From the IMG/VR virus record IMGVR_UViG_3300027007_000012, positions 24,657 to 88,656 of that record: DNA of 64,000 nucleotides; one strand, written 5' to 3'. Both the position numbers and the translations under genes were made by a program. Below, piece after piece: positions 6,785-49,942 of this stretch. Origin of the DNA: a virus. Lineage: Duplodnaviria > Caudoviricetes. Under the pieces are notes generated by a model, which saw only the letters and a list, made by a program, of their open reading frames with translations, was not told the DNA's origin and did no database searches. Within the stretch, counting starts at the first letter, position 1, and every line of letters begins with the position of its first letter.

Positions 6785-7170
6785 GCGTTTTTGAAACTTT
6801 TCTTGGGTTGAGTGGAAGAAATGTTGTGAAAGTTGAGTGAAAGCTGGGTTGCGTATATGTATGGAAGCTGTCTCGTTTTTCTGTACCTGTTCAGAAGGGG
6901 GTGAAATCGATAGACGGCGATGGGATTGGGATAGGATTGTTTTCGGGAAAAATCGAGAGATCCTCGTTTAGGGACAATGCTATTCGGGCAATACAGACCC
7001 CCTACCCCCCAAATTCGGGCACTTGGAAACCCCAAATATGGGCACTCTCAGGGCCTGTGAGGCCCGTCTACGGACTATCGAAGCTCCCTGAGTTGATTCT
7101 GTGGACTCATTTTTGGACGTTCGTCTATATATGTGGACACACGCTGGTGGTGGCATCGAGAGCTGCGAGG

Positions 7171-7373
7171 GCTATCTTTTTCGTGCTATCCCAGTCCGAC
7201 CGCGTGGGTTACCAAAAAACTGCTATCCCAGCCGCTTTCGCGCGCGGCCCGCCGGCTCACGGACTCACTCGCCGCTCGCTATCAAATCTGTGCTATCCTG
7301 CGCCGGGACCGTCGTGCGCTATCAAAAAATCGCTATCCCAGAGCTGCGTGGGTTATCTTTTTCGCGCTATCCT
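7171..7373. repeat. Iteron-like array of five bipartite GYTAYC-N8-GCTATCC units
   Basis: Units start at 7171, 7208, 7278, 7318 and 7352; N8 spacers are A- or T-rich; region lacks a credible ORF. Confidence 0.8.
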
Positions 7374-7536
7374 ATGCCTGGTTCGATCTCCAGTCGAAAC
7401 CGGGGGCCTCGTCGCTGCAACCCGGTGTGAAACCTGTCGTGAACTCGTGAAGCGATAACCATGCTACGGGAACGGTTTTACCAGCAGTTTTATCAGTATA
7501 ACATATATTTATTATCTTACGTGTCCTACATAGATT

Positions 7537-7908
7537 ATGGCACAAAAAGGCCACCCGACGGGACGCAGCTGGGACGAGCGGGTCCAGGAGCGACTGGAGA
7601 ACCTCGAGTACGTCGAGCACGTGCACCTGGATTCGGGCGAGCGCGACTACCTGGCGGGCCAGAGAGATGTCGACCGAGTGACGTGGCTGGTCAGGCTGGA
7701 TGAGGCGACGATTCAGCAGATCGAGTTCGTCGAGGCGGGAGACATCGATGGGAGCGAGACGTTGCGCGGGATTCGCAACGAGTTCGAGCTCGAGATGGGC
7801 CTCGCCCCCGGCGACTCGTGGATGGAGTGGGAGGAGATGCAGCGGGGGACGATCTACGTGACCGGCACGCACGACAACCGTCCGGGAGGGAGCGACGTCT
7901 TCCGCTGA
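7537..7908 (+). CDS. Hypothetical protein, first gene of cassette 1
   Basis: Leaderless start MAQKGHP directly after the conserved promoter; acidic 123 aa. Confidence 0.75.
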   Translation: MAQKGHPTGRSWDERVQERLENLEYVEHVHLDSGERDYLAGQRDVDRVTWLVRLDEATIQQIEFVEAGDIDGSETLRGIRNEFELEMGLAPGDSWMEWEEMQRGTIYVTGTHDNRPGGSDVFR

Positions 7909-7925
7909 GCGGCCGGTCGCGGCAA

Positions 7926-7968
7926 CCCGGCATGGTGCGTCGTGGGGGTTCGAGTCCCCCACCGGGCA
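7926..7968 (+). ncRNA. Mini-tRNA-like element 1 (acceptor-like stem plus T-arm)
   Basis: GTGGGGG-TTCGAGT-CCCCCAC (7942-7962) enclosed by CCCG/CGGG; no D or anticodon arm. Confidence 0.65.
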
Positions 7969-8013
7969 TGGGCCGAGAAAAGTCGGGACTGGCCCACCCG
8001 AACGGAGCAACCG

Positions 8014-9999
8014 ATGAGTGTAGACGACGCGCCCGCTGAGGAGCGGGCACTGATAGAGGAGCACCGCAACGAGATCGCCCGAACCGCCGTCGACGACGCG
8101 GTCGAACTGTACGACCTGGTCTCGCGTGTCGGGTTCATCGCCGAGGACGCCGCCGCCGAGCTCGAGTTCGTCGACGAGGACGAGGGGTCGCTGGCGGATG
8201 TCCGTCTGGCCCTGGACATGCTGGACGAGATGGACAACGCACTCGTGTACATGAACCGACAGAAGCGCCGCGTCGAGGGCCTGTTGGAGGAGCTGGCGCA
8301 CATCGAGGAGGACCTGTAGATGCCGTCGACATCGATCGAGGTGGCGGGTGACGTCGTCAAGGCCCGGTACTTCGGCGAGGCGGAGGGTGACTACGCGAAG
8401 CTGGTCGTCCACCGCGACCTGTTGGCGAACGAGGATGAGGCAACGCGCGTCCTCGACGAGATGCGCGACACGATCGCCCGGGAGGGCCGCTGATGCACGA
8501 CACGTGCCAGTGCGAGGAGTGCAAGCTGGAGCGCCAGCGCGAGTACGAGGCGTCGTACCCCGAGCAGGCGCGCCGGGACAAGCTGGAGTTGGGTGCCGAG
8601 GCGACGACCGAGTTCGCCCGAGAGGAGGCACTGCTGCTGAAGACTGGGATGACCGAGCGCGATGCGCGGGCCCGGGGGCTGATCGACTGATGACCGCGAT
8701 GGATGACCTGCGCGTCGAGCGTCAGCACTCGCGCTACGCGATCGCGCTGGAGAACGTCGAGGCACTCGCGCACGACGGCCTCGAACAGACCAGCGCGAAG
8801 GAGAAAGACGAGATCCTGCGCGAGATCGAGGCGGTCGCGACGGGGGCGTTCGAATGAGCGAAGTGTCGAAGAAACGCGCAGCTGCGATGTTGGAGTTGCT
8901 CGATAAGGACGAGACGATGAGCGAGGGACACGACGACTCGACCGACCCGGAGTGTTGGCGGGAGTCGTTCCTGGAGAGCGCGTTCGAGGAGGCGGTGTCG
9001 ATGGTGACCCAGGCGTCGATGGCCTACGACGAGGAGCACGGAGAGATGAACGACCAGCCGCACCCGATGGACGTCATCCGTGGGGAGAGCCTGTTGCGCG
9101 TCTACGCGACGAGTCGACCGTGGGCGGTCCCGGTCGTGGTGGTCGAGGTCGCAGAGGCGCCGGCGTACTTCGAGAACGGCATGCTGACCGATGTGCGGGA
9201 AGTGTACGCCCGGCGGAAGCCGGGGCTGTCGGCCGACCCGACGCACGTGAAGATCCAGATTCGCCAGGGGCGGTCCCGATGAGCGGCGCGACGCGACAAC
9301 CCTGTGACGTCCGGGATTCGGTGGCCGAGATGTCGACGGAGTCGCTGCTGTTCCAGACGGCGATGACCGACGCCTACGGGGGTGAGGTTGCCGACCTGAT
9401 CGACTGGGAGCTGGACAGAGAGATGCGACACGAGCTCGCCTCACGCGGGGTCGAATGGTAGTGTACGCGATGGTGACCCTGATCGTCTGGTTGGGTGGCC
9501 TGCTCGCGTGCTGGATGGTGTACAGAGCGGCGGTTGGAACGATAGACCACAGACAGTCATGAACAGAGACATGGAGGACGACAAATGGTGAACTGGGGCG
9601 GGCGGTACCCGCCAGGAGCAGCGAACGACCCGGCGGCACCGTACAACGAGCCGGAGATGCCCGAGCCCGGGACCGTGATTACGCACGACGTCTCGGAGGC
9701 GTACTGCGCGGACTGTGACGAGACGGTCGGGCCAAACAGCCCGGACGTCGTCGCGGACATCCTGCTGGACGAGCACCACGGACACCAGGTGGAGGTCGAG
9801 TCGTGGACGGAGGAGGAAGTCTGGGGAGGCGACGATGCCCGGTAGTCACGAGCGCCACCTGGACGAGTTCGGTATCTGTCAGTGTGGCCCGTCGCGATCG
9901 GGGACGGAGCCGATGGCGCTGGAGTACCAGGATGACATGACCGGGCGGTGGGTGACCGAGCAGGTGCCGGCCTGCGCCGACTGCTTCGGGCTCTTGTAG
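8014..9999 (+). CDS. Cluster of about 9 short translationally coupled hypothetical ORFs (8014-8319, 8320-8493, 8493-8690, 8690-8857, 8854-9282, 9279-9461, 9585-9845, 9835-9999); several CxxC microproteins
   Basis: Acidic ORFs with ATGA/TGATG stop-start overlaps. Confidence 0.7.
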
Positions 10000-10019
10000 C
10001 CCGGACGCCCTTTCCGCTT

Positions 10020-10330
10020 CTGCGCGCCGCCCGCGACGACCCTGGTTTCCGGTCCAGGCCGAAATAGTAGAGATTCTGATTATATGCAGAACCCGAGAGA
10101 TGAATACAACTCGCCTCAGCGGCACACACGAGGGTCTCCCGGCGACCAGTTTTCTGGGGTCTCACCCCCCACCCTCTCCATGTCGCAAACGACCGTCCAC
10201 GGGCCGCGTTCGCGGCGTCTACGCACGATTTTCGAAGTTCTCATTTTATGCCTTTTGCTCATCGGCGAACCCTGGTTTCTGCTCCGCGAGCCCCGGCACC
10301 GCATCCCGGCGCATGTAAGATAATAGAAAC
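10020..10330. repeat. About 300-bp non-coding spacer with diverged copies at about 19015-19330 and 21540-21840
   Basis: Shared ordered blocks ccctgNtttccggtcca, ctcagc, cggcgac, cccc-rich tract, ttYYgctcc and cccggc. Confidence 0.75.
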
Positions 10331-10401
10331 ATTTAATATCGTACCAGACCAAGTATACATTGGACATCGAGAAACCGATGGCCAGCTGGAGTGTCAAAGA
10401 A

Positions 10402-10860
10402 ATGGCGAAAACGACCAACGCGGCCGGCGCACAGCAGACGAGCATCGCGAGCGACGCGGACCTCGTCGACCCCACGCAGCACGTGGTGGGGTTTAACGAC
10501 AAGACGATGAAGCGCGCGAAGTGGGAGGAGTACGACTTCGTGGTCACGGACACCGGGAACGTGCAGGTCCGGAACGCTTCGTATGGGGACGACGCAGACG
10601 CGCACACGTACCACGTGGTGACCGACGCGTCTGGCATCCCGAAGTGGTGCCTGCACGCACTCGAGGACGACCACGAGGACGACTGGGCGCCATGCCCGGC
10701 GATGGCCTACCACGCAGCGAGGAAGAACAAGGAGACGGGCCTCGACACCGAGGAGCTGATCGCCAACGGCGAGTACCGTGTCTGCAAGCACGCCCTCGCG
10801 TACGCCCGGAACGAAGCGATCGTCCAGGCCGTCCGCCGGGTCAAGGGAGGCGACAACTGA
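10402..10860 (+). CDS. SWIM-type zinc-finger protein
   Basis: KRAKWEEYDF...NASYG...CPAMAYH...CKHA, similar to haloarchaeal SWIM proteins; SD-like GGAGTG upstream. Confidence 0.6.
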   Translation: MAKTTNAAGAQQTSIASDADLVDPTQHVVGFNDKTMKRAKWEEYDFVVTDTGNVQVRNASYGDDADAHTYHVVTDASGIPKWCLHALEDDHEDDWAPCPAMAYHAARKNKETGLDTEELIANGEYRVCKHALAYARNEAIVQAVRRVKGGDN

Positions 10861-11437
10861 TGAGCACCGTCGAGGTGCTGAACGACCACGGGACGGTCCA
10901 GTACCGCGAGCACGACCTCCAGGTCCGGCGCGTCGACGCGGCGTCGGCGGGCTACGACACCGGGTTCGAGAACGAGTTCGAGCTCCTGGTCGACGACGAG
11001 GTCGTCGCGACCGCGACCGAGATCGAGGCCGAGGGGTGGAAGAATCCGTGGGCCAAGTCACTGCGCCTGTATGGGAAGGCGTTCGTCGACGGGAGGCTGG
11101 ACGGATGAGCCGTTTCATCCAGGCCATGCGTGCAGAGTTCGGGCACGAGGATGCCCGGAGCAACGAGGACTACCGAGCGCCCGTCCGCAAGGTGTACTAC
11201 GAGGTCGACGGGACGCGACTCCGCGCCACGGTCGTCGGGGCCACCGACGAGGAGGCGCGACAGACGTTCGACGAGCTCGCGACCGCTGAGGGACTCGACA
11301 CCGCGGAGGTCACCGAGATCGTCCCGACCGACGCCCAGATCGCGGACCTGGACGACCGACTGTACAGTCACGTGCACCGCAAGGCGTCGCGCCGGGACCA
11401 CGGTGCGCTGAACGCCGCGTTCAACGGGGGCGAGTGA
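10860..11437 (+). CDS. Two hypothetical proteins (10860-11108, 11105-11437)
   Basis: Coupled acidic ORFs. Confidence 0.7.
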
Positions 11438-11904
11438 TGCGGGCGCGATCGCGGCGCTGGATGGTCGTCACGGACCCGGACACGGACTGCGAGTCGCCGG
11501 TGTTTCGCCGCATCCCGTCGAAGTTGGAGGCGCACAAGCTCGCACAGTTGACGGTGCGCGCCTACGACGATGGGACCAGCGCCGGCGTTGTGGAGGACCT
11601 CGGAAAATGACGGGGGACGTTCGCCGACGAGAGCACGTCTACGGGAGGGGGCGGCTCGTCGTCTACGAGGGGAACCCGAACACGTCGACAGCGTTCGTGG
11701 CCGGGAAGCCGGTCCCGAACGAACCCTGACAGTTTCTGTTTTTGCGCGCCGCCCGCGTCGTCGATTCACCCAGACCGCACTGGATGCCACCAGCAGCGGC
11801 TCTCGCCCCACATATGACAGATAATAGAAACATTTAATATCGTACCTGTCATAGTATAGTATAGGTTACTGAGGGAAACCTCGGTGCCCACCTGGAGTGA
11901 AAGA

Positions 11905-13569
11905 ATGACGACCAGCGACAGCAGTGGCAAGACGGAGTACAGCACGGGACAGATCGGCGTCGACGAGGAGCGTATCATCGACGAACTGATCTTCAGCCAG
12001 GCGGAGGGCATCGTCGACGGCATCCGCGAACTCGCCCAGAACGGGATCGATGCACCGAACTCGACGACAGTCGAGATCGATGTCGACCACGAGCAGACGA
12101 TCGTGATCGACGACGGCCAGGGGATGGACCTCAGCGACGAGGAGATTCGAGAGTTCCTGACGAACCTGGGACAGTCGACGAAGATAGACGACGAGGACAC
12201 GATCGGCCAGTTCGGCATCGGCTTCGGCCAGGCACTCGCCGTGGGCAAAGTGACTGTCCACAGCCAGGACTCGAAGGTCGAGTTCGACGCCAAGAACTGG
12301 TTCCGCGACTACCGCCTGTACGAGGCCGAGGAGACGTTCGATGGGACGAAAGTCACGATCGAGCACTACGAGGACGAGGTGCCGGCCGAGGGGTCGAGTG
12401 AGTGGTCGGACCACCTCGCGGACCTGCGCACCCGGTTCCAGTACATGGAGCTCGTGAAAGGCGTCGAGGTCTGGCTGAACGGCGAGCGCGTCTCGAACTA
12501 CGACCCGGCGGATGACCTGGAGAACGCCACGGTCTACGACTCGGAGCTGGCGTACATGGTCCTGAAGCACGAGAGTTACGACTGGCTCGAAGTGTACTCG
12601 GCGGGGCTGAAGGTCACGGACGTCAAGGGACACGGCCTTCGCGGGTACGTGATCACCAAGCGCAACCTGGAACTGAACACCGCCCGGAACAGTATTCGCT
12701 CCGGGTGCGAGGTGTGGCCGGAGGTCGAGAAGGAGATCGCCGATGCACGTGCCGAGATCCTCGCGGACGTCTCGGATTCGAACCTGTCGAACCCAGGCCG
12801 GGCCGCGATCATCCGCCTCGTGCGTGAGGGCCACGACGAGTTCAAGGACCGAGAGGTGCTGAAGATGGCCAACGGCGAGATGACGACGTTCGAACAGGTC
12901 GAGAAGCGGGATAGCATCATGTTCGCCGGCCAGACGGACAAGGCGGCGGGGAAGCTGGCCGACCTGGGCAAGATGGTTCTGATGCAGGGCGACAGCGCCG
13001 TCTCGCAACTCCGTGAGGGGGCGAAGCGGGGACAGCTGACGCTCCCGGAGACGAAGAACATCCAGGCGACGGCGGCCGCGCTCGGCATCAAGAACGGCTA
13101 CGAGATCCTCGAGTTGGACGAGTTCCCGAGCAAGCCCCTGGCACTCGCCCGCATCCTGCGGATCAAGATGGCGGCGTACAGCCCGTACGACCTGGACCGG
13201 GAGATCATCCCGGGAGAGGACAAGACGGCGCGGGCGTGGACGAAGCCCCGCCCGGACACGCTGAACGGCGACGAGCGCGCGGCCATCGCCGACTCAGAGT
13301 TCGACTCGTTCGTCGCGATCACCGAGACCGCCTACACGTCGTGGGCGAGTGAGATACTCGTCCTGGAGCTCTGGCGCATCATCGCGCACGAGTTCGCCCA
13401 CACGGAAGACTCGACGGGAGAGCCGTCCCACGGGTCTGGCTTCGCTCGCCGCTTCCGCAAGATCCTGGACGCGACCCAGCCAGCGGCCGTGGAACTGCTC
13501 GAGGAGATTCGGTCTGACGGCCTCGGGGCAACGTTCGAGCGATACGACCACGGGGTCCCGGACGTCTAA
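11905..13569 (+). CDS. GHKL (HSP90/MutL-like) ATPase with a C-terminal HExxH motif
   Basis: RELAQNGIDA, DDGQGM and IGQFGIGF Bergerat motifs; HEFAH near the C-terminus. Confidence 0.85.
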   Translation: MTTSDSSGKTEYSTGQIGVDEERIIDELIFSQAEGIVDGIRELAQNGIDAPNSTTVEIDVDHEQTIVIDDGQGMDLSDEEIREFLTNLGQSTKIDDEDTIGQFGIGFGQALAVGKVTVHSQDSKVEFDAKNWFRDYRLYEAEETFDGTKVTIEHYEDEVPAEGSSEWSDHLADLRTRFQYMELVKGVEVWLNGERVSNYDPADDLENATVYDSELAYMVLKHESYDWLEVYSAGLKVTDVKGHGLRGYVITKRNLELNTARNSIRSGCEVWPEVEKEIADARAEILADVSDSNLSNPGRAAIIRLVREGHDEFKDREVLKMANGEMTTFEQVEKRDSIMFAGQTDKAAGKLADLGKMVLMQGDSAVSQLREGAKRGQLTLPETKNIQATAAALGIKNGYEILELDEFPSKPLALARILRIKMAAYSPYDLDREIIPGEDKTARAWTKPRPDTLNGDERAAIADSEFDSFVAITETAYTSWASEILVLELWRIIAHEFAHTEDSTGEPSHGSGFARRFRKILDATQPAAVELLEEIRSDGLGATFERYDHGVPDV

Positions 13570-13594
13570 GCGGCCGGTCGCGGCAACCCGGAAC

Positions 13595-13641
13595 GGCGTC
13601 GGTTTTGGCGTGATGCTGCGGATCGAATCCGCTCGACGTCC
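13595..13641 (+). ncRNA. Mini-tRNA-like element 2
   Basis: GGCGTCGG (13595-13602) pairs with TCGACGTC (13633-13640); T-arm GCGG-ATCGAAT-CCGC. Confidence 0.55.
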
Positions 13642-13842
13642 TGGCGGCCTCCGCTACTGTCAAGTGGAGTGACCGCCTACTCCCGCCTGGATGGGTCGGT
13701 TCCGTCTGTGGTAGGCGGCTCGGCCCGTCCCACTCCAGGTGGCCACGGCGTTCGCGATCGGGCTGGCTCCCTCGGGAGTTAAGTGGTCGCGGCCGCGGGC
13801 ACCGAGCCCGTGTCACCTTTCGTACTGCTTCCCTGATACCCC

Positions 13843-13878
13843 GTATGTACGTACGTACGCGCCCATACGTACAGACGC
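13843..13878. repeat. RY-alternating element with TACGCGCC core
   Basis: gtatgtacgtacg-tacgcgcc-catacgtacagac; same core as 31014, 40525 and 63003. Confidence 0.85.
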
Positions 13879-13982
13879 GCATTCTCACCTTCCTTACCTG
13901 TCAGAGTTCAGTAACACTTATTATCGTACCCTGAGTAGGTCTATATGGACTTCGAGAAACCCGAAGGCCAGCTGGAGTGAAC

Positions 13983-15614
13983 ATGACAGATACAGCACGC
14001 CTTGTTGTCAACGGTTATGTAGAGCCACAAGAACGATCGGTCCGGATCGTGTCGATCCTGGGGAGTCTGGCGAACGTGCCGGACGGCCACCGCTTCGAGT
14101 ACCGCGGGATGGAGCTCGAAAAGCGCGTCACCACTGCACGAGCGCGGCGCGAACCCGAGCTCGCCGTGTACGACCCCGATGGCGAGTTCGTCGACCAGTT
14201 CCAGCCTCTGGAGCTCTCGTCGTACGGGATCGTGGAGATGCTCGATACCATGCGCGCCCACTGGGTCGAGACGAAGCGAGCGACCTCTCTGTGATCGAGG
14301 TCGTGATCGCGGTCGCGGTCATGGTCGCTGGCCTGGCATTGTTCTACGCCATGGTCGCGTACTTCGACTTGTGACCGAAAACTGGTATTTACCGGGTGGG
14401 CCCTACCGTGACATGGAGTACCAGAGATGCCCCGATTGATCGAGCGCATGGGTTGCGTTGCCGACCGACTGAGTGACGAGTGGGAACTCGACGACATCGT
14501 AATCGAGCAGTCGGCGACAGCCACGGCGCTCTATCGCCACGAGTCCGGGGCGATCGTCATGTGGTCGGCCGACCCGGGGCATCGCGTTCAGCTGTGGGAG
14601 CCAGACGGCGCGATGGAGACCTGGTTGGACGACGACGTGGTCGACCTGGATTGCGCGGCCGAGACGGTCCAGACGTGCATCGAGATGGTCGAATACGAGA
14701 CCAGCACATCGATGCCACCAGCAACGTCGGCGCCACGTCCGTAACCGTTTTTCCGCGCCGCCCGCGCCGGTCCTGTCACATCGATTGACCACCTGTACCA
14801 TGCTACGTTTCTCGATTACCAGCAAACCCCTCAGATATACATACATTAATATCTGTACCACGCATAGGTACATATAGGTCAAAAAACTGGCCTATCCGAA
14901 CGGAGACTGAGAAAGATGAGATACAGAGTCTACGGCACACGCAGTGGCACCGATTTCCAGGCACCCGTCTACGCGCGGACCGCGTCTGACGCGATCGACC
15001 TGTTCCTCGACTCCGTGGGCGACCACGCGGCCGAGTACGACAACGTCCGAGCCGAGGTCTGGGGTTGACGATGGAGAAGCTGTCGAATGTGGTCCGCATC
15101 GAAGACCACGAAGTGGTCGTCAACCGACTGTACCTGGCCACGCTGGTCGACGACGTCCAGTACCGACTGAGCGCCCTGGGAGACGAAGACGTCGGTGACT
15201 ACGAGGGAGAGTTGCACGAGGCGCTGTTCCACGCCCAGGAGGCGCTCGATGACTGACGACGACGACCGACTCCCGCCGGACGCGGTCCCGGACCCGTCGG
15301 TTTGGATGCCCCCGGACGTGGTGGTCAGCAAGGAGACCGCCGAGGTCGCGCTGCGCGAGCTCGACATCCTGATTGAGCACACGGGCGGCCCGGACACGGC
15401 GGTCGAGGACTGCTGCTCGCCGCTGGCGCTCGCGTACGACCGGGTCGAGAGACTGGAGGGCGAGGGGATCGACCCGTTCACCGTGGGGACGGTCCTGCAA
15501 GTGTTGGTCGGTGTCGGTGAGGAACGAGGCGTCGACCTGTCGGGGGAGGACCCGTTACAGGACGACGTGTTCCAGGCGAGGAGCGAGTTCAGGGACGCAC
15601 TCGGCGTCGAGTAG
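13983..15614 (+). CDS. Small hypothetical ORFs of cassettes 4-5 (13983-14294, 14427-14744, 14916-15068, 15071-15256, 15249-15614)
   Basis: Acidic coupled ORFs downstream of the conserved promoters. Confidence 0.7.
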
Positions 15615-15631
15615 TCGCCCCTCGCGGTTTT

Positions 15632-15680
15632 GCATCGCTGCTGGTGGCATTCCGAGCTCGGTTCGATTCCGAGGCGATGT
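15632..15680 (+). ncRNA. Mini-tRNA-like element 3 (contains a near-copy of the dispersed motif)
   Basis: CATCGC (15633-15638) pairs with GCGATG (15674-15679); T-arm CTCGG-TTCGATT-CCGAG. Confidence 0.7.
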
Positions 15681-16026
15681 GTGGCTCCCTGGCCGGAGAC
15701 GATACGTTGATAGGCTGGTGGAGCCTATGTCTGCACGACATCCCATAGTGGATGTCGTTCCGTTCGGGTGGGATAGCACGCGTCGGGCTGTCTCGGCAAG
15801 GGCAACCACGCAAGTCGAGATCAGAGGCTCGTGCATACCCGTTGTCCGGGGCTTTGTCCCCGGACGCCCTTTGTGACCCTGAGCGCCAGCTCTCAGTTTT
15901 CGCGTATCCTGTCAGTATCCTGCGGGGCCGGTCGCGCTAACCCGGTACCCATGCTACGGTCCACAACTATCAACAATATTAGTTGTCATAAATATTATTA
16001 TATCCCTACCCTGAGTAGTATAGAAT

Positions 16027-17363
16027 ATGGGAAAATCAAAATCCCACTCGAGCGGTGAGCGCGTGAACAAGCGGCGGTACCGCGGGAGCGAGCAGACCGA
16101 GAGCTTCGACCTGCAAGCAGAGCTCGCCAAACTCGGCGGCGACGAGGAGGACGAGGACGATGAGTGAGCGAGCGTACCGAGAGCCGGCCAAGTTCTCGGC
16201 CGACGAGCTGTCAATCGGCGATGAGATCGTGGTCGCCGGCCTCGTCCACGAGGTCCTGTCCGTGGGCGAGCCCGGGAAGCAGTGCCTGGTCCGCACGGAC
16301 CGAGGGGCGTTCTCGAAGGACGGTCTGAGCAGTGGCATCGACGACGGCTCCGTGGAGGTCCTTGGGGGAGGCGACGATGGGCGCTGACTTCGGTCCTGTC
16401 AACGTGCGCTGGGAGGGGCCGAACGGGGACGTCCGCAACCGGGAGTTCGCACAGCACGGTCTGTCGACCGGGTGGATCGTCGGCTACGATGAGGACGACA
16501 ATGCCGAGCGGAAGATACCGCGGAACCGGGTCTACGAAGTGGAGGTGCTCTGAGATGAGCGAGAGGGTCGACGAGATCAAGCGCCGGATCACGGGTGTGG
16601 ACCTCGTCGAGATCTGGGTGAGTGAGGGCGACCGACTGTTACTCGGCATCCAGCCCTACGCCGACGCCGACGGGGAGGCTGTCGCGCACTACCTGGAGCG
16701 ACTGTTCGACGCACGCATCGAGCGGGTCACGTACGACTTCGTCCTCGCCGAGGTGGCCCGATGAACTTCGACGAGATGAGTCCGGCCGAGATCGACGACC
16801 TGTTCCAGGTCGAACCGCAGCACGACCCCGAGTTCCAGATGGAGCGAATGCGCGAGCAACTGGAGTACGCTGGCTGGGACGCGATCGAGGGGCTCGTCGA
16901 CCCCGGGGACGAGTACGTCGTCGAGGAGTCGCACCTGCTGACGCCCGACCCGCTCGACTACACCGACTTCGAGTGGACGCTCGTCTACCGCGAGAAGCAC
17001 GTCTTCGACGTCATCGACCCGTTCGACAGCACGCGAGGGGTGATCCCCGCCAGTCGGGATGGCGAGGACATGATGCAAGCGTTCGGGGAGTTCGCCGAGG
17101 CGTTCCACCTCGAGTGCGAGATCGACAAGTTCCACGATGAGCTCGGAGAGATGGAGCCCGGGGAAGTCGTCCTGCTCCCGAGCGGCAAGCTCCGCATGGA
17201 CACGAGCGACCGGATCGTCGTCTACAACCCGATGTACGAGCCGGTCGTGACGACCGACCCGGAGAACGTCACGGTCGAACTGGTCGAGAGTATCATCGAC
17301 GACTGGCGGGCTGAGATGCGCGAGAAGTACGAGGGGACGCCGATGGAAGACCAGTTCGACTGA
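16027..17363 (+). CDS. Cassette 6 ORFs (16027-16167, 16160-16387, 16377-16553, 16555-16764, 16761-17363), hypothetical
   Basis: Leaderless MGKSKSH start; coupled acidic ORFs. Confidence 0.7.
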
Positions 17364-17431
17364 CCGCGCCCGTTTTCGCGCACCGCCCGCGGCGAATGAG
17401 TTATCGACATCGAGATAGTATCGAGTAGCAG

Positions 17432-17938
17432 ATGGGATCGCGACCGTGGGAGAACCCCGTCACACTCGCCCGGGCCTACGCCAAGCATGGCTCGGCCGAA
17501 GGCGTCGCCGACGCGTGGGGGTGTTCCGAACGCACGATCAGGACCTGGCTGCACGAGCACGACGAGATCCGCGTCCAGCGCCAGGGTCGCCGGCCCTCGT
17601 GGGAAGACGACGACCCGGCGAATCACGTCCTGGAGGACGACGAGGGCTACGAGATCGTCGAATCGTTCGTCCCGGTCCGCGATGAGTCAGGCGAGCTCGT
17701 CACGATCGAGCGCAAGACCGTTCGTATCCACCGTCTCGTCTGCGTGGCCGAGTGGGGCTTCGACCAGGTGGTCGACCAGGAGGTGCACCACATGGACGGG
17801 CACAAGGTGCACAACACGCGGGAGAACCTGATCCCGTTAGACCCGAAGACGCACGGGTTTATGGACCCGGCGCGGCGCTGGCGGATGCCCTGGGTCGGCG
17901 ATTACGAACTGGGCGATCCTGGCCCTGCTGGCGACTGA
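17432..17938 (+). CDS. HNH endonuclease with N-terminal HTH
   Basis: RIHRLV...VHHMDGHKVHNTRENL HNH motif; N-terminal AEGVADAWGCSERTIRTWL helix-turn-helix. Confidence 0.85.
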   Translation: MGSRPWENPVTLARAYAKHGSAEGVADAWGCSERTIRTWLHEHDEIRVQRQGRRPSWEDDDPANHVLEDDEGYEIVESFVPVRDESGELVTIERKTVRIHRLVCVAEWGFDQVVDQEVHHMDGHKVHNTRENLIPLDPKTHGFMDPARRWRMPWVGDYELGDPGPAGD

Positions 17939-17960
17939 CCCGTGGGCTTTTGCTTTCGAC

Positions 17961-18055
17961 GTATCCCCGCTCGCTTTCTGTCGGCGGGTATCCCTGCTCG
18001 TTTTCGGCGGTTGCGTATCCCTGCTCGCTTTCTGACACCGCGTATCCCTGCGGGC
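17961..18055. repeat. Tandem 27-bp repeat, four copies
   Basis: GTATCCC(C/T)GC at 17961, 17988, 18015 and 18042 (exact 27-bp period). Confidence 0.9.
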
Positions 18056-18189
18056 CCCGGCACCGCTTCCCGGTGACCAGACCATGCGATGCTCGGAAAC
18101 TCACAGCAGTCCAAGCCGCTTCGCGAGTCTCTAATACCCTACCCTGAGTAGCATAGAATGAGGAACAAAAATTCCTCACCCGAACGACC

Positions 18190-18429
18190 ATGAACGCAAT
18201 GGAAGACGTAGAAGGACTCCGTTACACCTTCTGCAACGTGTGGCTGGAATCGAACTCTCAAATCTCGCACATAATGGTGAACAAAGGTGGTGAAGATGTG
18301 TGGGAGGAGACGCCAGAGACAATACTCGTCAACAATTCGATATTCGAAGGCGAGTGCTACTTCCGAGATGTGATGAAGGTGGTGCTCGAACCACGAGAAG
18401 ACGAGATCAACGTCAAGATCAACCCCTGA
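18190..18429 (+). CDS. Hypothetical protein (cassette 7)
   Basis: 79 aa, preceded by an 11-codon leader ORF that overlaps its start. Confidence 0.65.
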   Translation: MNAMEDVEGLRYTFCNVWLESNSQISHIMVNKGGEDVWEETPETILVNNSIFEGECYFRDVMKVVLEPREDEINVKINP

Positions 18430-19361
18430 CGGCAACGAGATGGGGCTCCCCATGTGAGCTCCCGTTTTTGCGCGACGCCCGCCGCCCACGACTATCCCAG
18501 ACCATGCGATGATCTTCGATTCCCAGCAGTTCCAGCCGTCTTACGCGTCTTTATATCACTACCCTGAGTAGTACAGAATGGGAACAAAAATCCCAACCCG
18601 AACGATGAGCTACGCAACCCACGTTCAGATTCAGAAGCTGAAGCGAGCGAGAAACGAGAGTCGCTGGCCCTCGGACGAGAGAGAAGACGACGAGTAGAGC
18701 CGACGCCGACTCTTTCCATTTTCGAGCGCCGCCCGGCGTGACCCACCGGCGTTCCCGATGTGAACGTTTCCAGACAATATCAGCCGCTAAACGTGTCTTT
18801 AATACCCTACCAGTGGTAGTATAAGATATGGGACAAAAAATCCCAACCCAGCGGAACTGAGTGTAGAGAGTGTGCGAATAGAGGGAGAGAGTGGAGAAAA
18901 GACACTACGAGTGCACAGTGTGCGTATAATAGAGGGAGAGCTCATCGTGAGAGCCTACGAAGATTTCCCACTTCACTCTGACATCTGAGTGAGTGGGAGA
19001 GCGGTCCACCGTTTTTGCGTGCGGCCCGTCGGCCTCGAACCCTGATTTCCGGTCCACGAGATGATTTTGCTTCCTTGCAGCACCTGAGAGGCGAATACAA
19101 CCCGTCTCAGCGAGGATCTCGAGCGCCTCACGGCGACACGTTTTCTGAGCTACAACCCCCTCCCTGTGGACGGTGCAAACGACTGTAATCGACTGTCAGC
19201 AGCGAGCTCACACGTGCATATTCGAGTGCCTCAGTGTATGTAGAATAACGTATACGACGAACCCCTGTTTCTGCTCCACGCGGGCCCGCTCGCAGCATCC
19301 CGGCACCGTCTCTCTTGCCGCTTCGCTGATATTTATTACCCTACCCTGAGTAGCTATAGAT

Positions 19362-19739
19362 ATGGGACAAAAAAATCCCAACCCGAACGACGAGAGCGAC
19401 GAAATCCTCCCGGCCCTCGACCACCGAGGACTGACGGGACACGGCAAGAAACGACTCGACGAGAGCGAGCTCGTCACCCCGTACCTCGTGCAGACGCTCC
19501 AGGACGCTGACCCGACCATCCTCCGAGCCATCTGTCAGGTGGCCGATGCAGCAGCGTCGGCACGGTACGCACCGATCCAGAACCAGCTGGCCAAGGACGA
19601 GAGTGCCAGCCGAGAGATTCAGCAGGAATACTGGAACCAGCTGGACGACGTGAAGGGGCTCTCGCTCCTCTGCACGGAACTCCTGCGAGACCAGAGAGAC
19701 GGCGTCCCAACCGAGGAGGACCCCCGACTCGGCTTCTGA
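19362..19739 (+). CDS. Hypothetical protein (cassette 10)
   Basis: Leaderless MGQKNPNP start encoded by the conserved hairpin. Confidence 0.75.
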   Translation: MGQKNPNPNDESDEILPALDHRGLTGHGKKRLDESELVTPYLVQTLQDADPTILRAICQVADAAASARYAPIQNQLAKDESASREIQQEYWNQLDDVKGLSLLCTELLRDQRDGVPTEEDPRLGF

Positions 19740-20091
19740 ACACGGGAACCGACCCAGGGCTACCGATTTCGCGCCACGCCCGTCGTGAAAACCACCGCAC
19801 CGATGCCACCAGCAGCGCCGGCCCCGGCGTGAATCGTGCACATCGCGACCAGTGTGCCTCGACGAGCGGCGACCAGGTTTCGCGAGTGGAACCCCTACCC
19901 CGTAGACGCCGCCAACGAACCTCCGAGAGCTGGGCCAGATCGCCGTCGTGAAGGGCCGTCGTATCAGGTGTGAATACTTGCGGGCCCCGGCACTGAATCC
20001 AGGGACACAGCGGCTATGCGATGCTCTGGAACTACCAGAGTTATCAGCCGTTTTACATACCTTAAATACCTCACCCTGAGTAGCTAAGAAT

Positions 20092-20370
20092 ATGGGAAAA
20101 CAAAATCCCATCCGAACCGGCGAGCAGTGCGGCAAACACGACGTCGTGGCCTTCGTGGCCCTCGCTGCGGACCCCTCGTGGGTCGATGCACCGACGAACC
20201 CGGTCACGCCGGGTAACGGCACCGAGGACTGGGCCGCCGACATCGAGGGCGCCGACGGGGGCGTGATCATGAGCGACTGGTCTTCGCTGGCGGGTGCGGG
20301 CGCGATCGACCCCCTGTCGGGACGAGAGCTGAGCGATGAGGAGCTGCGAGAGAGGCTGGGGGTCGAGTGA
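20092..20370 (+). CDS. Hypothetical protein (cassette 11)
   Basis: Leaderless MGKQNP start. Confidence 0.7.
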   Translation: MGKQNPIRTGEQCGKHDVVAFVALAADPSWVDAPTNPVTPGNGTEDWAADIEGADGGVIMSDWSSLAGAGAIDPLSGRELSDEELRERLGVE

Positions 20371-20562
20371 GATGCTGAGCCCCAACGGCGATACGGCGCG
20401 GATCGATGCGCACGAGTGCGAGCTCGAGCCGACCGGCCGCGGAGAGGGGATGCACGAGGAGTTCGAGTGCCGAGTCTGTGGGACGGTCACGACGCCCGCT
20501 GTGGGCGTCCGGCGAGCGAAGCGGCAACGGCTCTGGTGAGGGCCAGCCCCTCGTTTTCGAGT

Positions 20563-20598
20563 GCGTGTACGTACGTACGAGCGGGTACGCACAGACGG
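20563..20598. repeat. Degenerate RY-alternating element
   Basis: gcgtgtacgtacg-tacgagcg-ggtacgcacagac. Confidence 0.6.
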
Positions 20599-20775
20599 GT
20601 GGTGGGACCATAGCTTCCGCTTCTGCGCGCCGCCCGCGACGGCCACCGTCCCCGACAGCCAACGTAGCATCTATGCGCGCTACTCGACAGAGAAACTTAA
20701 ATTCGGGCTCCTCTGGGCTTCTACGCAAGTTTTACAACCGAAGTCTTTATATCTGATACCTGAGAAGTCTTAGAT

Positions 20776-22962
20776 ATGGGACAAAAAATCCCAACCCCCG
20801 AACGGAGCGAGAGCGAGACGAGAGCAGCAGAGGAGGGACGATGATGCGCCCCGAGTCGCCGATTGAGTGGACTGGCGAGGCCCACCTCGTCACGGTGAGC
20901 TGTAGCCGCTGCGGGAGCACGATGAGCGTCGACGAAGATACGGCGCTCTGGTACGACGAGCAGGGACGCGAGCACGTGTGCGAGGAGTGTGAGTGAGATG
21001 CGCCGAGTGCGTACGATGCTGCTGGCCGCGAGAGTCGTCGCTGGGATCGTCGTGTTCCCGATCGCGCTGACCGCCGCGAGAGCTCGGGCCCGGGTGGTCT
21101 GATGAGCTGTCTCGATTGCGGGTCGACGTCGCTGGCGAGCGAACGAGTGGACGTGGTCGGGCGCCCCGACGAGCGGGTGACGTACTGCGAGAACTGTGGA
21201 GAGGTGCAGTACGTGGATGTGATTCGATGATTACGCTGCTGGTGGCATTGGTGGTTGCCGGGCTGGGCGTGTGGGCGTTCCTGCTGATCGCGAGGGAGCT
21301 GTAGCGATGGACTGGTGCCCGGAGTGCGGGTCGATGGCCCGCGTCGACGAACGACGGTTGGAGCGCCAGGACGACAGCGCGCTCGCCAAGGAGGTGCTCG
21401 ACGTCGTCTGCATGCAGTGTGAGTACGAGGGCGAGAAGCGTCGCACAGTGCCCGCCGTGTTCGAGCGGCGGCCAGCAGAGACGGGGCGGGGCGTGAGCGA
21501 GCGCGAGCCGGGTCACCCGCTCGACCGCTGAGCGCCCCGGTTTCGCGTTCCGCCCGCGCCGACCCCTGTTTCCGGTCCACGAGCAAATAGAGTTCGCGAC
21601 GCGTGTGCATACGCTCGTCTCAGCACGATCCCCCAGGGCCTCACGGCGACGGGCTCCTCGGGCCATCACCCCTCCCCTGTGGATGTTGCTCACGACTGAC
21701 TGGGAGCACACGAACGCACGCCTCAGCGCCTCTACGCGCACTTTCTGTCTGGGGATTTATCATTGGCTTCGACCTTGATTTCCGCTCCACGCGGCCGGAC
21801 GCGGCAACCCGGCACCAGAAGTATCAGCCGCTTTACATGACTATATACCTGTACCATGAGTAGCTAAGAATATGGGAAAACAAAATCCCACCCGACCGGA
21901 ACTGGCCGAGAAGCGACGCAAGCTCGTCAGCGAGCTCCCGTTCACGAGCCCCGCCGAGAGCGGCAATCGGATCGTCGTGTGCGTGCAGGACCGCAAGCTG
22001 TCGAAGTTCGAGCGCGTCGTCGCGGACCTGGACCTGGAGATCGTCGAGCGAGAAGACGCTGGGCACTCGATGCAGGGCCGACGCCAGCGCATGGTCCTGG
22101 AGGCGTCGTAGCATGCGCCGATCGACGCCGGCGGACCTGGAGCAGCGCCTCGCCGCGATCGAAGCAGAGCTGCGAGCGATGAGTCGCGGAGACGTCGACG
22201 CGGGAACGTGCCGGTGGCTGCTGGAGGAGAAGGCCGAGCTCAGAGACGAGCGCGACCGGCTGCACGAGACGAGTGGGCGGTGGGCCTGATGAGCGACGAG
22301 GGATTTCTCCCGCCAGCGCCGACGGGCGGCCACCCAGCAGACGCCGTCGAGCGAGCGCGAGAGATCGTCCAGGGAGCACCGGCGACAGAAGAAGAAGTGG
22401 CGTGGGCGGCGGAGGTCCTCGCAGACGTCGAGTAGGGTCTCCGGTTTCGCGCCGCGTCCCCGCCGTCCCCGTCAGTTTTCAGGCCGATTTCAGGCCGATT
22501 TTCGCAGAAACCCTCGAAATCGAGTGCCTCAGAGCCTCTACGGGCCAAAGTCTTTATATTCGCTTATGTCAAAGATTTAAATGGTATGGCAAAAAACCAA
22601 ACCACCCGACGGGAAGCAGAGCAGGAGAACGAGAGCGACTGGTGGAGCGAGTATCTGCGAGAGCTCGACGAGATCGTTGTGGGAGTGCTCCCAGCCGAGT
22701 CAGATGCGGCACGCCGGCTCGCAGCAGACGAGTACCCGACGTGGAGCCAGCGATGAGTGACGAGACCGGAGAGGCGTGTGCGAGGGGAGTCGAGAGTGCG
22801 AGCAGTGAGCGAGAGCGTGTGCTGGTGAGAGACGTGACCGCCGTCGCGCAAGACCTGGAGACTATGTCGGACCACGATCACTTGAGAAGCAGCCGCATGC
22901 TCGAGAAGACGGCGCGAGAGATCGTCGACGCAGTGCACGTGTACGCAGACGACGACGCGTAG
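20776..22962 (+). CDS. Microprotein ORFs of cassettes 12-14, including CPxCG-type zinc fingers, a short membrane peptide, 21872-22111 and 22586-22756
   Basis: MDWCPECG and MSCLDCG-type starts; leaderless MGQKIP, MGKQNP and MAKNQ starts. Confidence 0.6.
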
Positions 22963-23686
22963 GGAGAGGGGTTGCCGATTTTTTTGGTGCTGTCCGTGAG
23001 CGCCGGAAACGCGCGCCGCCCGTCGCCCGTCTTTCGTGTGTGCAACCGCATGGCTGGGTGAGAGAGCGAGCAGGAGATGAGCAGGAGCGTGTGCAGTAGA
23101 GCCCCCCGCTCGCGGGCCCCACCAAGAGCTGGTGCGCGGCCGGGACCCATTTAGACCTACTTTTACCGCGACACTGATTTTCAGGGATGGGACCGAAACG
23201 AATCACTATACTATCTCACATCAATCCAGTCTTTGTCTTCAAACTCGGTGGCACAGATGTTACACAAATCGATGTCAACTTCTTTCGTTGTCCCGTCCTG
23301 GCGGTCAATCTCAAGGTGATGTTCAGATCCAGTCCTATCGTTACAAACTGAGCACTCCATTTTTAGAAAGATTACAGGTGAACCGTTTTAGTCGTATTCC
23401 CCCTGATCAGTGTCCCACTAAGGTGTTTTCGTGGTGTTGATTCGATTTGATCTACTTTTTACGGGCACCCTGTTTTCAAGCAGTCGCCTCTGGTGGCATC
23501 CAGTGCGGTGACATGAACCAGGTCCATTGACCCTAATGTACCCTTATTTCGAAGCATAACGAAAATTATATATCCGTTCCCTGACTATCTCCATATGTCC
23601 TCCTTGGAACGGAGTGACGCATTGCATGAAGCGAACGAACGACCGGCCTGGAGACCCGGTCACGACCCCGAGAAGCACCGCTTCGG

Positions 23687-40560: not shown

Positions 40561-41061
40561 AAGGGTAGAGGTTCTGAAAGACATTAGGTAGGGAATCTTT
40601 CATGGTGACCCCCGGCGACCCCCTTTCCAGACCCCAACCCCCACCCTGTAGGCCCTGTAAACGCCTCTCCGGGCACTTCGGACCCGATTAGTTTCAAATC
40701 GACACTCTCAGACTCTCTATACGTGGTATACGGCATAGCTGAGCGACATTCCAGTCCTTCAGAACAGTTTCCTCTCCGCTAACCTCTCATGTCCGATAGC
40801 GCGTCATAATATTCCTGACACCCCCACGCTCTCGATGCCACCAGCAGCGGTTTCGACGATTCATGAAAGGCACGTAGAAACGGTTTAGGTGGAATCGATA
40901 GACTGGTCTTCATTAAACTAATGAATGAGTCTCGATAGAACAGAAATCTTTAATATCATATCCCACATATTTCTACTTACCCACAGCTACCCAGTGGGAC
41001 GCACTCCAGGAGTGCGTGGAACGGAGACATACATGAGAAAATTGCGACAGAAGTGGGGGCA

Positions 41062-41874: not shown

Positions 41875-42755
41875 ACCCCGAGGAAGCGCAGCAGCAAGTT
41901 CGAGACGAGTTCGCACTCGTTGCCGACCTGATGCCCACGTCTGGCGTCGATCCAGACGAGATGCGGGATATGGTCGACAACGTGATCGAACGATACAACG
42001 CATATCTCGGCGACGAGATCGAAAACATCTACGAGACCAATGAGTAACGCAACCGACGCAGACGCGACGATAGACAGTAGAGATGACATCCCGGATCGTG
42101 ACGAGCTCGTCGAGCTTCGACGAGACCGTGGCCTCACGAACGGCGACATCGCGGAGAACCACATCACGGAGTTCAGTGCCCGACAGATAGGGATCTTCGC
42201 CTCGATGTACGGTATCGAGAAGGGCTGGAAGGACGCCGAGTACCTCCAGGAACAGATCGATAGAGGGGTGACCCCCGAGGACCTGGCCGAGCAGTGGCCA
42301 ATCAACGCTGACACCGTCCGGGGCTGGATGAGCGAACACGGCATCGAGGAGAACCCGATCCCTGACGCCTACGCTGACGCGGTTGAGGCGCTGGAACACC
42401 TCGCGGAGGTCGTTGACGACGACGATCTGGCGACCGAGTACGAGGAGTTCGCGAACGAGCTCGCCGACGACGAGGGTAGACTGTTCGCATGAACATGTGT
42501 GACGCCGACGACGTGGTCGAGATGGTCGGGGACACCAAGAGGGTACTCATCGACCGGATGACCGAGACGGAGGACATCATCGAATATAGAGAGCTCAACC
42601 AGGCGAGACAGGCGCTCGACGATCTCGAGTCCCTGTACAATGCGGGGACAGAAAGCGATCTCGTGAAGCAAATCTTCGAGGAAGAAACAGGGCTCGATCC
42701 AGACGACTTCGACGGACCGTGGGATGAGCGGTTGAACGGTGTGATCGAGGCATGA
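41871..42755 (+). CDS. Three hypothetical proteins (41871-42047, 42040-42492, 42489-42755)
   Basis: Coupled acidic ORFs. Confidence 0.7.
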
Positions 42756-44405: not shown

Positions 44406-45809
44406 ATGTTTACTGACTCCATCACGTCCGAAACACTGACAATCGACGGCCCTGATACCACCGGGGAGATCAAACTCACACTCACCGAAGCCGGTGAAAT
44501 AACCTCGTCAGTGACCGGTTACATTCCAGCACCAGAACCAGCCACTGACTCCCTCGCGCAACTCGCTGGAAACACCGCACCGCAATACCACGACTTCCAC
44601 GGTGAAGCACTGGATGGAACCGGTGCCATGATCACTGGCGCCGTTACAGAAAGCGATTACACTGACTCATCCGACGGATCACTCACTGATATTCGCCCAG
44701 CATCCGCGACATTCAACTCTGCACCTGACACACCATTCGTAGACCAGTCCGTTACGATTAAATTCGATATGCTGAACTTCCGTGCACCGAAATACATTTT
44801 TCCACAACCTGACGACCTACCGCTCCTCACTCGTGATGGCCTCACCTTTCACTCGGACCGACTCTCCGATTTTGACGATCGCCTCAACCTGATCAAGGAA
44901 TACCGTCGGTCACTCCGTACTGGAACAATCACGCTCACTCAAGCTGTGAATGGTCCGGTGGATAGGCAACTCAATAAAGCGCTTTCCTCGCTACGCCCCG
45001 TGACGTGGCTGCTTGCGTTCGTCCAGGGCGTGTACCCAGCACCGATTCGTGCCCGAATCACCGAGGTGGACGATGACAGCATTGCGTGGACATACGAGCG
45101 GTGGATGACAACATGGCGGAACGATATAGGGAATGCATTTACGGAGCGAATCGACTGGGCGAACGACGCCCGCGTGTTCTTAGATGACGCGTACGATCGA
45201 TTCGATGACCGGGCCGATGATTATCGGTACCGCCGGTGCATCTCGTGGTATCTCGATGCGTTACTCGACCGGACGATAGATTGCCGCGTCGCGTCGATTG
45301 CAGCCGGAATTGAGATATTGGCTGAACGTTACGCTGCTTACAGCGATGGCCCAGTTGATAGTGACGGAGAAAGTGAATATGAGAATAGTCGTGTATTCCG
45401 CGTTAGTGAGGTGCTCCGCGACGTACTTGCTTGTCTCCGCAACGTAGCGGATGAGAATGAGTCCTTTGAGTCCAACCGTGAGAAGGACGATGATTCCAAG
45501 GGAAAGACAGCTGCACGGATCCAGCATCTCGTTCAAGAACTCAATGTGAATGTGGATGACCTCGTTGAGTTCAGCGAATCGTTCGACTCGAATCCAGGTG
45601 CGGTGGATGAGTACTTCTACGCGACGACACGAAATTTTGTGCTGCATAACGCTCGTGACGAACACCCCTTTGATTCAGTATTCACAGATTACGAGGCTTC
45701 GTTGACCTTGTTTCGTCGAATTTTGTTCAAGGAGTTAACTGGGTGTGTGGAGCATAACCGGTACACAGGACTCTCGGACTTAATGCCGACTGATCAGCGA
45801 TTCGAATAA
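44406..45809 (+). CDS. ApeA-like HEPN-domain protein, putative anti-viral RNase
   Basis: WYLDAL...IAAGIEILA and C-terminal RNFVLH (Rx4H HEPN motif). Confidence 0.65.
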   Translation: MFTDSITSETLTIDGPDTTGEIKLTLTEAGEITSSVTGYIPAPEPATDSLAQLAGNTAPQYHDFHGEALDGTGAMITGAVTESDYTDSSDGSLTDIRPASATFNSAPDTPFVDQSVTIKFDMLNFRAPKYIFPQPDDLPLLTRDGLTFHSDRLSDFDDRLNLIKEYRRSLRTGTITLTQAVNGPVDRQLNKALSSLRPVTWLLAFVQGVYPAPIRARITEVDDDSIAWTYERWMTTWRNDIGNAFTERIDWANDARVFLDDAYDRFDDRADDYRYRRCISWYLDALLDRTIDCRVASIAAGIEILAERYAAYSDGPVDSDGESEYENSRVFRVSEVLRDVLACLRNVADENESFESNREKDDDSKGKTAARIQHLVQELNVNVDDLVEFSESFDSNPGAVDEYFYATTRNFVLHNARDEHPFDSVFTDYEASLTLFRRILFKELTGCVEHNRYTGLSDLMPTDQRFE

Positions 45810-48940: not shown

Positions 48941-49942
48941 ATGGACGTCGCCGAGATCTACGAGCAAGAGATCAACGCCCGGGAAGACATCATCGAGGCG
49001 TGTCCTATCGACATCTACGTCGCGTCGATCAACCCGTACTGGGCCTACCCGAATAAGCTGATGGCGTACTACGAGACGCGGCCTGGCGTTCGTGACTCGT
49101 GCCGCCAGGTGATCGTCGACTCCGGGAAGACACGTATCGGCAACATGAGCGAGATCATCGACGCGGCCATCGACATGGACGCCGACCAGGTGATCCCGCC
49201 AGACCCGACACCGTACACAGACGGATACGACGATCTCACGCCCCACGGTCACGCCGAGGAGCAGGCACAGCACTACTGGGAGTGGTATCGAGAAGACGTC
49301 GACGGGAAGCTTCTGCTCCCGATTCACCCGCCGTATCAGCGATTTATCGAGGAGCTCGGTCGGTGGGACCCGGGACACATCCTCGGCTACGAAGACGACC
49401 CGTACTTCGACTACCCGAGTACGCCCGACGCTGAAGAACGCTACCTCGCCGGCGTCGAGCACTATTCGCTCACGTACGACCTGGTCGGTGCCGCCGATGG
49501 CGTGGCGGTCGGTGGCCTCCTGGGCCTCGACGTCTTCGAGCAGATCACGGCCCTCAAGCAAGTGCGCAAGGCGGTCGGCCCGTACAAGCACGTCCACGCA
49601 CTGTCACCGACACCTCGGCCCGAGATGTTGCTGTTCCTCCGACGCAACCCCGGTGTTATCGACTCGCTGGACCTGTCGACACCGGAGACGGCACCGGCCG
49701 GGAACAAACTCCCCGACCTGCGGTTCTACCCGCAGATGAAGTACCTGTTCCCACCAGCACACGCGAACATCAGCCCCGTCAGGGGCGCGGCGTCGACGAT
49801 GATCGCGCTGATGCTCAACTTCTGGTTGAGCGAGTGGGTCAAAGAGGAGGAACTGCTCGACATGCTCGAGGAGCACTACGACTGGGTCGAGCGCGAGCCC
49901 ACCGCACAGACCGGCCTGGAGGCGTTCGGGCATGGCGACTAA
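48941..49942 (+). CDS. Divergent TGT-fold (queuine tRNA-ribosyltransferase/DpdA-like) protein
   Basis: VIVDSG, GVAVGGL, VHAL and IDSLDLST motifs. Confidence 0.7.
   Translation: MDVAEIYEQEINAREDIIEACPIDIYVASINPYWAYPNKLMAYYETRPGVRDSCRQVIVDSGKTRIGNMSEIIDAAIDMDADQVIPPDPTPYTDGYDDLTPHGHAEEQAQHYWEWYREDVDGKLLLPIHPPYQRFIEELGRWDPGHILGYEDDPYFDYPSTPDAEERYLAGVEHYSLTYDLVGAADGVAVGGLLGLDVFEQITALKQVRKAVGPYKHVHALSPTPRPEMLLFLRRNPGVIDSLDLSTPETAPAGNKLPDLRFYPQMKYLFPPAHANISPVRGAASTMIALMLNFWLSEWVKEEELLDMLEEHYDWVEREPTAQTGLEAFGHGD

Follow-up and report, generated by a model that had tools for sequence, protein, structure and literature searches.

The 7.5–23.1 kb region of the window appears to be the early-gene region of W, a series of about 15 short transcription units, all on the + strand, in which one set of signals (~70–130 nt) recurs every 0.3–2.5 kb; its early timing is predicted from the sequence. 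We consider, with a probability of about 0.7, that these repeats are expression signals first and recombination substrates second, the order of the units being fixed. The window is the whole 64-kb stretch of DNA that we analysed (G000:C1:24657-88656 of an 88.6-kb IMG/VR virus contig). Its virus, abbreviated W, is an undescribed, uncultured large tailed virus of haloarchaea encoding a terminase, a portal, a ribonucleotide reductase and a helicase.

W and its relatives

Among deposited phages and haloviruses, we did not find a close relative of W. DNA and protein searches of a phage collection with the array, the GHKL ATPase and the portal gave no match, and those with the terminase retrieved distant bacterial phages only. 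Two independent relatives were found. The first, G002, is an 89.6-kb IMG/VR "provirus" with 78–81% nucleotide identity to W (G001 is a fragment identical to part of it), and the second is the circular 148.9-kb plasmid unnamed3 of Halobaculum halophilum (NZ_CP058532.1), whose GHKL ATPase is 65% identical to that of W. The annotation of this Gai3-2 "plasmid" (L130, L309) is that of a complete tailed-virus genome, with a terminase, a tape measure, a head-tail adaptor and other virion genes. Pattern and protein scans of IMG/VR returned G001 and G002 only, and one IMG/VR scan with a loose pattern gave only chance matches. A metagenome scan yielded chance matches and the parent contig of G002, scans of genome contigs found generic GHKL ATPases only, and an Rfam search had no match.

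A tyrosine integrase gene is located at G000:C1:1302-1841, 23 kb upstream of the window start and ~30 kb from the array, and the term "integrase-free" used in the first-pass annotation therefore applies to the array but not to the genome. The integrase gene of G002 is in the same relative place, whereas the H. halophilum plasmid has the array yet no integrase.

Units of the array

Each unit reads as an optional upstream block, a BRE/TATA promoter, a ~20-nt spacer, an AUG with a hairpin, the box CCCGAnCGG, the cargo, and a T-run followed by a GC box. The units and elements are as follows, in W coordinates:

7502–10034, + strand: U1; promoter, AUG hairpin (AUG 7537), ~10 small genes, T/GC box at 10018
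10035–10300, + strand: E1; non-coding ~250-nt element between direct repeats
10326–11756, + strand: U2; class-2 promoter, leader hairpin, GGAGUGA Shine-Dalgarno-like box, 5 genes, predicted terminator at 11739
11827–13569, + strand: U3; class-2 promoter, hairpin, GHKL ATPase gene (11905–13569)
13911–14765, + strand: U4; class-2 promoter, hairpin, 3 genes, predicted terminator at 14748
14840–15640, + strand: U5; promoter, leader hairpin with a U.G pair, 3 genes, T-run at 15628
15991–17390, + strand: U6; promoter, AUG hairpin (16027), 5 genes, predicted terminator at 17373
17432–18051, + strand: HNH endonuclease gene without a canonical promoter, then three 27-nt tandem repeats
18124–18482, + strand: U8; hairpin AUG 18158 (11 codons), then a 79-aa ORF, GC 0.49; W-specific
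18544–18736, + strand: U9; hairpin AUG 18578, 39-aa ORF, predicted terminator at 18719
18792–19030, + strand: U10; promoter, hairpin, 10-codon ORF, predicted terminator; without protein cargo
19035–19300, + strand: E2; non-coding element
19326–19785, + strand: U11; hairpin AUG 19362, 125-aa ORF, predicted terminator at 19767
20056–20637, + strand: U12; hairpin AUG 20092, 2 genes, the second (20373–20539) in U5 in G002
20740–21557, + strand: U13; hairpin AUG 20776 (22 codons), then CxxC mini-genes, predicted terminator at 21541
21558–21810, + strand: E3; non-coding element
21836–22465, + strand: U14; hairpin AUG 21872, 3 genes; two units in G002
22547–23030, + strand: U15; hairpin 22582–22604, 2 genes, T7 run at 22979

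Direct-repeat families reproduced the promoter block and the T-run/GC box. R1, a covariance model of promoter plus hairpin, matched the 64-kb window 14 times at E<0.05 and once at E=0.39, always on the + strand (7502–23620), with no match outside the array on either strand. Over the whole records of the relatives it had 19 matches in G002 and 16 in the H. halophilum plasmid, all on the coding strand and, with one weak exception, inside the arrays. These results agree with the first-pass annotation, which had described at least 14 promoter-stem-loop cassettes; we count about 15 self-contained promoter-to-terminator units with 14–15 copies of R1, all in the array.

As also described there, the cargo genes are unrelated to one another; they are ORFans. 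Paralogues were not found among the cargo proteins, so the signals alone are repeated. Only the HNH endonuclease and the GHKL ATPase are recognisable, and the host-takeover or anti-defence role raised in the first-pass annotation stays putative. The gene of the latter (PF13589; C-terminal HEFAH motif) is the largest early gene, and the protein has 45–79% identity to members of eight further sequence clusters in public genome and metagenome data. ATPases with 100% and 62–66% identity (P0001, P0003, P0005) were also seen. The GC content is 0.49 in the U8 cargo, 0.54 in U9 and 0.62–0.70 in most other cargo genes; the low value of U8 is consistent with a recent acquisition. The previously noted 10-codon ORF at 18828 (GC 0.50) was confirmed, and its unit U10 (18828–19016) may represent a small RNA.

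Several other repeated sequences were observed. The elements E1, E2 and E3 are paralogous, are bounded by direct repeats GACCCCTGTTTCCGGTCCA and have orthologous sites in G002; their consensus fold is weak. Iteron-like GCTATCC/GTATCC repeats occur at W 7158–7374, 15903–15920 and 17960–18051, including the 27-nt triple tandem after the HNH gene, and similar GCGTATCCC repeats at G002 45095–45200. Alternating GTAC tracts (gtacgtacgtac...cagacg) are intergenic in W (13845–13875, 20565–20595) and G002 (near 40905, 46800 and 53040). Finally, tRNA-like T-arm pieces (e.g. GGGGGTTCGAGTCCCCC) were seen at W 7930–7965, 13610–13640 and 15650–15690; ARAGORN called no tRNA, and these pieces could be processing signals or att remnants.

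A conserved hairpin at the start codon

In most units, a stem of 4–7 bp with an A-rich loop opens at the U of the AUG and is followed by CCCGAnCGG. Units U2–U4 carry the hairpin in a short leader, followed by the Shine-Dalgarno-like GGAGUGA; the leader of U5 is of the same type, but a CGGAG box replaces GGAGUGA. In correction of the first-pass annotation, the conserved stem-loop begins in or just after the start codon and not at the terminator.

Positions +3 to +5 were paired in all 37 units of the three genomes, and all four Watson-Crick types were found at +5 (G:C in 23 units, A:U in 7, C:G in 5 and U:A in 2). Pairing statistics were obtained from the gap-free subsets A7 and A8, since the 3' arms were out of register in A3, the Infernal alignment; 92% and 86% of the cells were paired in these alignments, against 79% in shuffles (0/500) and 20–53% in slid controls. 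Stems of orthologous units differ yet stay complementary, as in U9, where the arms are UGGGA/UCCCA in W, UGGGG/CCCCA in G002 and UGAGGA/UCCUCA in the H. halophilum plasmid, and U.G pairs are present in the hairpins of U3 and U5. When a hairpin test was run over the 88.6-kb contig, 10 of 2077 ATGs passed, all 10 in the array. Three of the hairpin ORFs end after only 10–22 codons, which together with the varied but complementary stems indicates that the structure is conserved and not the peptide. Most simply, this structure would be an RNA fold at the transcript's 5' end.

Promoter, spacer and terminator signals

The TATA box is centred ~27–28 nt 5' of the AUG (alignment A2). Under the TATA-to-start distance rule of haloarchaea (PMC8707807), this spacing predicts leaderless or nearly leaderless mRNAs, and most array mRNAs should be leaderless. 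An upstream block (CCATGC.A.G...CAGCAG) does exist, but it was read in only ~6 of the 15 units and is not the general feature previously described. The ACCCTGAGTAG block has six exact copies and one with a single mismatch, all on the + strand (13928–21863); correcting the first-pass annotation, we place it 3' of the TATA box but ahead of the predicted start site, outside the transcript. The ~20-nt spacer reads (C)TACCCTGAGTAG in 7–8 W units, and CTAC-N5-GTAG forms a small palindrome in the interval between TATA box and start site.

A T-run with a GC box, already proposed as the unit end, was found at 11 positions (10018, 11739, 14748, 17373, 18465, 18719, 19012, 19767, 20621, 21541 and 22445), and all runs of T>=4 on the + strand of the array fall outside called ORFs. 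A conserved stem-loop was not seen at these unit ends when they were read by eye, and we predict that they function as oligo-T terminators. The box differs between genomes: the variant TTTTGCGCCGTGCCCCGCCG has three exact copies in G002 and none in W, and the variant GCGCGCCGCCCGC three copies in W and none in G002.

From these elements, we propose that a BRE/TATA promoter ~28 nt 5' of the AUG would give mostly leaderless mRNAs, that the hairpin probably either controls all early mRNAs jointly, through their stability or their translation, or binds one common factor, and that an oligo-T terminator with its GC box would end each unit. Because the same blocks recur at such short distances, they would also serve as substrates for homologous recombination, with short conversion tracts homogenising the signals within one genome and unit-sized pieces being gained or lost in the right half while the order is kept.

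Comparison of the units among three genomes

Protein and DNA maps showed that the unit order is collinear in W, G002 and the H. halophilum plasmid, down to 40–70% protein identity, so the cassette reordering expected by the first-pass annotation is not supported. The sole displaced gene, W 20373–20539 in U12, has its homologue in U5 of G002 (42130–42300) and moved without its promoter.

The same annotation had anticipated gain and loss of cassettes, which was seen in one half of the array. In the left half (U1–U7), W and G002 have the same units in the same order. Differences there are single-gene swaps at gene boundaries within operons (W 10863–11427, 15074–15331 and 16360–16786), with no repeat at the breakpoints, and one insertion adjoining a terminator in G002. 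Whole-unit gain and loss is confined to the right half (W 18.0–23.1 kb versus G002 45.1–53.9 kb), which has five orthologous cargo islands (U9, U11, U13, U14 and U15). Three units of W (U8, U10 and U12) and seven of G002 lack a counterpart in the other genome, and U14 of W equals two units of G002, parted by two genes, a terminator and a promoter-hairpin. The G002-only units at 49367 and 49956 have homologues in the H. halophilum plasmid, indicating that W lost both. Overall, 3–4 of the 11 differences between W and G002 have no repeat at their breakpoints.

Possible traces of recombination at the repeats

Homology between W and G002 cargo begins a few nt from the AUG or just past the hairpin box and stops at the stop codon. 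The earlier expectation of breakpoints inside the repeats does not hold in general, the three swaps lying at gene boundaries within operons. Four W promoters (U6, U9, U11 and U13) carry a CCTGAG(T/A)AG spacer that is absent from their orthologues; these spacers are 75–92% identical to the best W paralogue and 58–67% to the orthologue. The flanks of U6 are orthologous in all three genomes, and CCAGYCYAAGG is common to G002 and the H. halophilum plasmid; in its place, over a patch of ~40 nt, W has CCCTGAGTAG and another stem. In both U6 and U11, the hairpin and box were replaced along with the spacer.

These comparisons support different histories for the regulatory parts and the cargo. Short-tract conversion among the repeats would best explain the homogenisation of spacers and terminator boxes; selection acting on CTAC-N5-GTAG as a regulator site particular to the lineage could have the same effect. 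Together with the turnover of units, this homogenisation points indirectly to recombination at the repeats, with no crossover point mappable.

Comparison with known systems

The closest layout is that of HGTV-1, where most ORFs in one arm of the genome have a TATA-like box and an inverted repeat in front of them (Sencilo et al, 2013, as cited in PMC3950731). According to the same citing paper, these motifs were explicitly likened to PeSLs in 2013 (PMC3950731); the archaeal PeSL analogy is thus already published and not new here. On the minus strand of KC292026, at 128–143 kb, we read a BRE/TATA element and, ~28 nt on, an AUG whose U opens a 4–6-bp hairpin, while promoters elsewhere in that genome are without the AUG hairpin; R1 gave five weak matches in this region. 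The W array likewise has a TATA-like box and an inverted repeat before ORFs of one arm (37 units in three genomes). However, HGTV-1 is a separate virus lineage that has only a few distant homologues with W and no array gene in common. The W array also contains a conserved box after the hairpin and a terminator box made of T-run and GC box, a difference from the 2013 motif as known through the citing paper. Because whole units come and go among the relatives while the order is kept, we regard the array as another case of the HGTV-1 layout and not as a proven gene-shuffling machine.

The first-pass annotation had cited the intergenic repeats of HF1/HF2 as mediators of modular exchange, which is not what has been published: the HF2 repeats are proven promoters whose location is strongly conserved, and nobody claimed that they take part in exchange (PMC8707807). 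By analogy, this supports the array repeats as expression signals. The class I repeats of HF1/HF2 (Hafunaviridae) are also repeated AT-rich intergenic blocks with BRE/TATA promoters at early-to-middle genes, and their conservation spans the start site, but HF2 has seven copies over 33 kb at conserved positions. The HF2 beta motif TCTTTAAGTC has no match in the array and two elsewhere in the window; the gamma motif CGTCTNNTAGAG is absent from the array, with one gamma-like match in or near it, at chance level.

T4-type PeSLs combine sigma-70 promoters with terminator stem-loops, flank differential ORFans and yield mini-circles (PMC2839356, Arbiol 2010; PMC4122927, Comeau 2014). Like them, the W array places recurrent regulatory blocks in front of ORFans within a plastic early region, where all W copies lie, and shows unit-sized indels between relatives. 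Of the differences between relatives, 10 are whole units in the right half, but three are intra-operon swaps without repeats. The W promoter is archaeal, the hairpin lies past the start site, the predicted terminators are oligo-T and no reordering was seen. As a composite of an early promoter and a terminating stem-loop the W element was rejected, since its hairpin follows the TATA box and starts at the AUG.

Alternative explanations

PeSL-like shuffling could be the main role of the repeats, which would move, lose and reorder cassettes through recombination, with excised circles as intermediates. The presence or absence of right-half units, the low-GC, W-specific cargo of U8, the "empty" U10 and the exchange of regulatory parts relative to cargo are in favour of this possibility. 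We nevertheless find it doubtful, since the order is collinear in three genomes, the left half, although it carries the same repeats, is unchanged in unit set and order between W and G002, the only gene to be displaced left its promoter behind, and swaps occurred at gene boundaries within operons.

A purely regulatory role is similarly hard to favour. It would attribute the similarity of the repeats to a genome-specific DNA- or RNA-binding regulator and the indels to illegitimate recombination, as in phage early regions. Authors working on HF2 proposed virus factors binding such repeats (PMC8707807), the CTAC-N5-GTAG palindrome would suit a factor of this kind, and the three intra-operon swaps are repeat-independent replacements. 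However, it is improbable that the same 9–12-mer arose by point mutation in four promoters independently, and the joint replacement of hairpin, box and spacer in U6 and U11 also argues for exchange.

In lambda, the nut/boxB site, a 5-bp stem capped by an A-rich loop, lies close to the 5' end of early transcripts that have terminators downstream. The array hairpin resembles it in form only, with no sequence or protein homology. Every unit starts with a short stem and an A-rich or GNRA-like loop and ends in a predicted terminator, and the hairpin might thus load an antiterminator that allows read-through of the T-run terminators later in infection. We think this improbable, given that an N-like gene was not identified and that, to our knowledge, RNA-hairpin-dependent antitermination is not known in archaea.

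It is very improbable that the hairpin is an attC-like site of integron-like cassettes for the tyrosine integrase encoded in G000 and G002, because attC stands at the 3' end of a cassette with integrase and attI adjacent, whereas these hairpins have only 4–7 bp and lie at the 5' end, inside ORFs, the integrase is distant and missing in a relative that keeps the array, and the order is fixed.

Implications

Beyond our preferred reading of expression signals that secondarily serve recombination, we tentatively raise a broader possibility, which we hold to be less probable. The promoter-hairpin and terminator blocks may be a true archaeal counterpart of PeSLs, whose homologous exchange would homogenise the signals and cause early ORFans to turn over unit by unit in at least two lineages of haloviruses that are unrelated (W and HGTV-1), and the AUG hairpin may serve leaderless early mRNAs as a shared post-transcriptional operator.

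Almost nothing is known about the timing and control of early genes in archaeal viruses. In the array, one control module is present in about 15 parallel copies, with comparative support from three genomes, and H. halophilum Gai3-2, with its related 149-kb genome, provides a cultured system. The HGTV-1-type motif is no longer a singleton.
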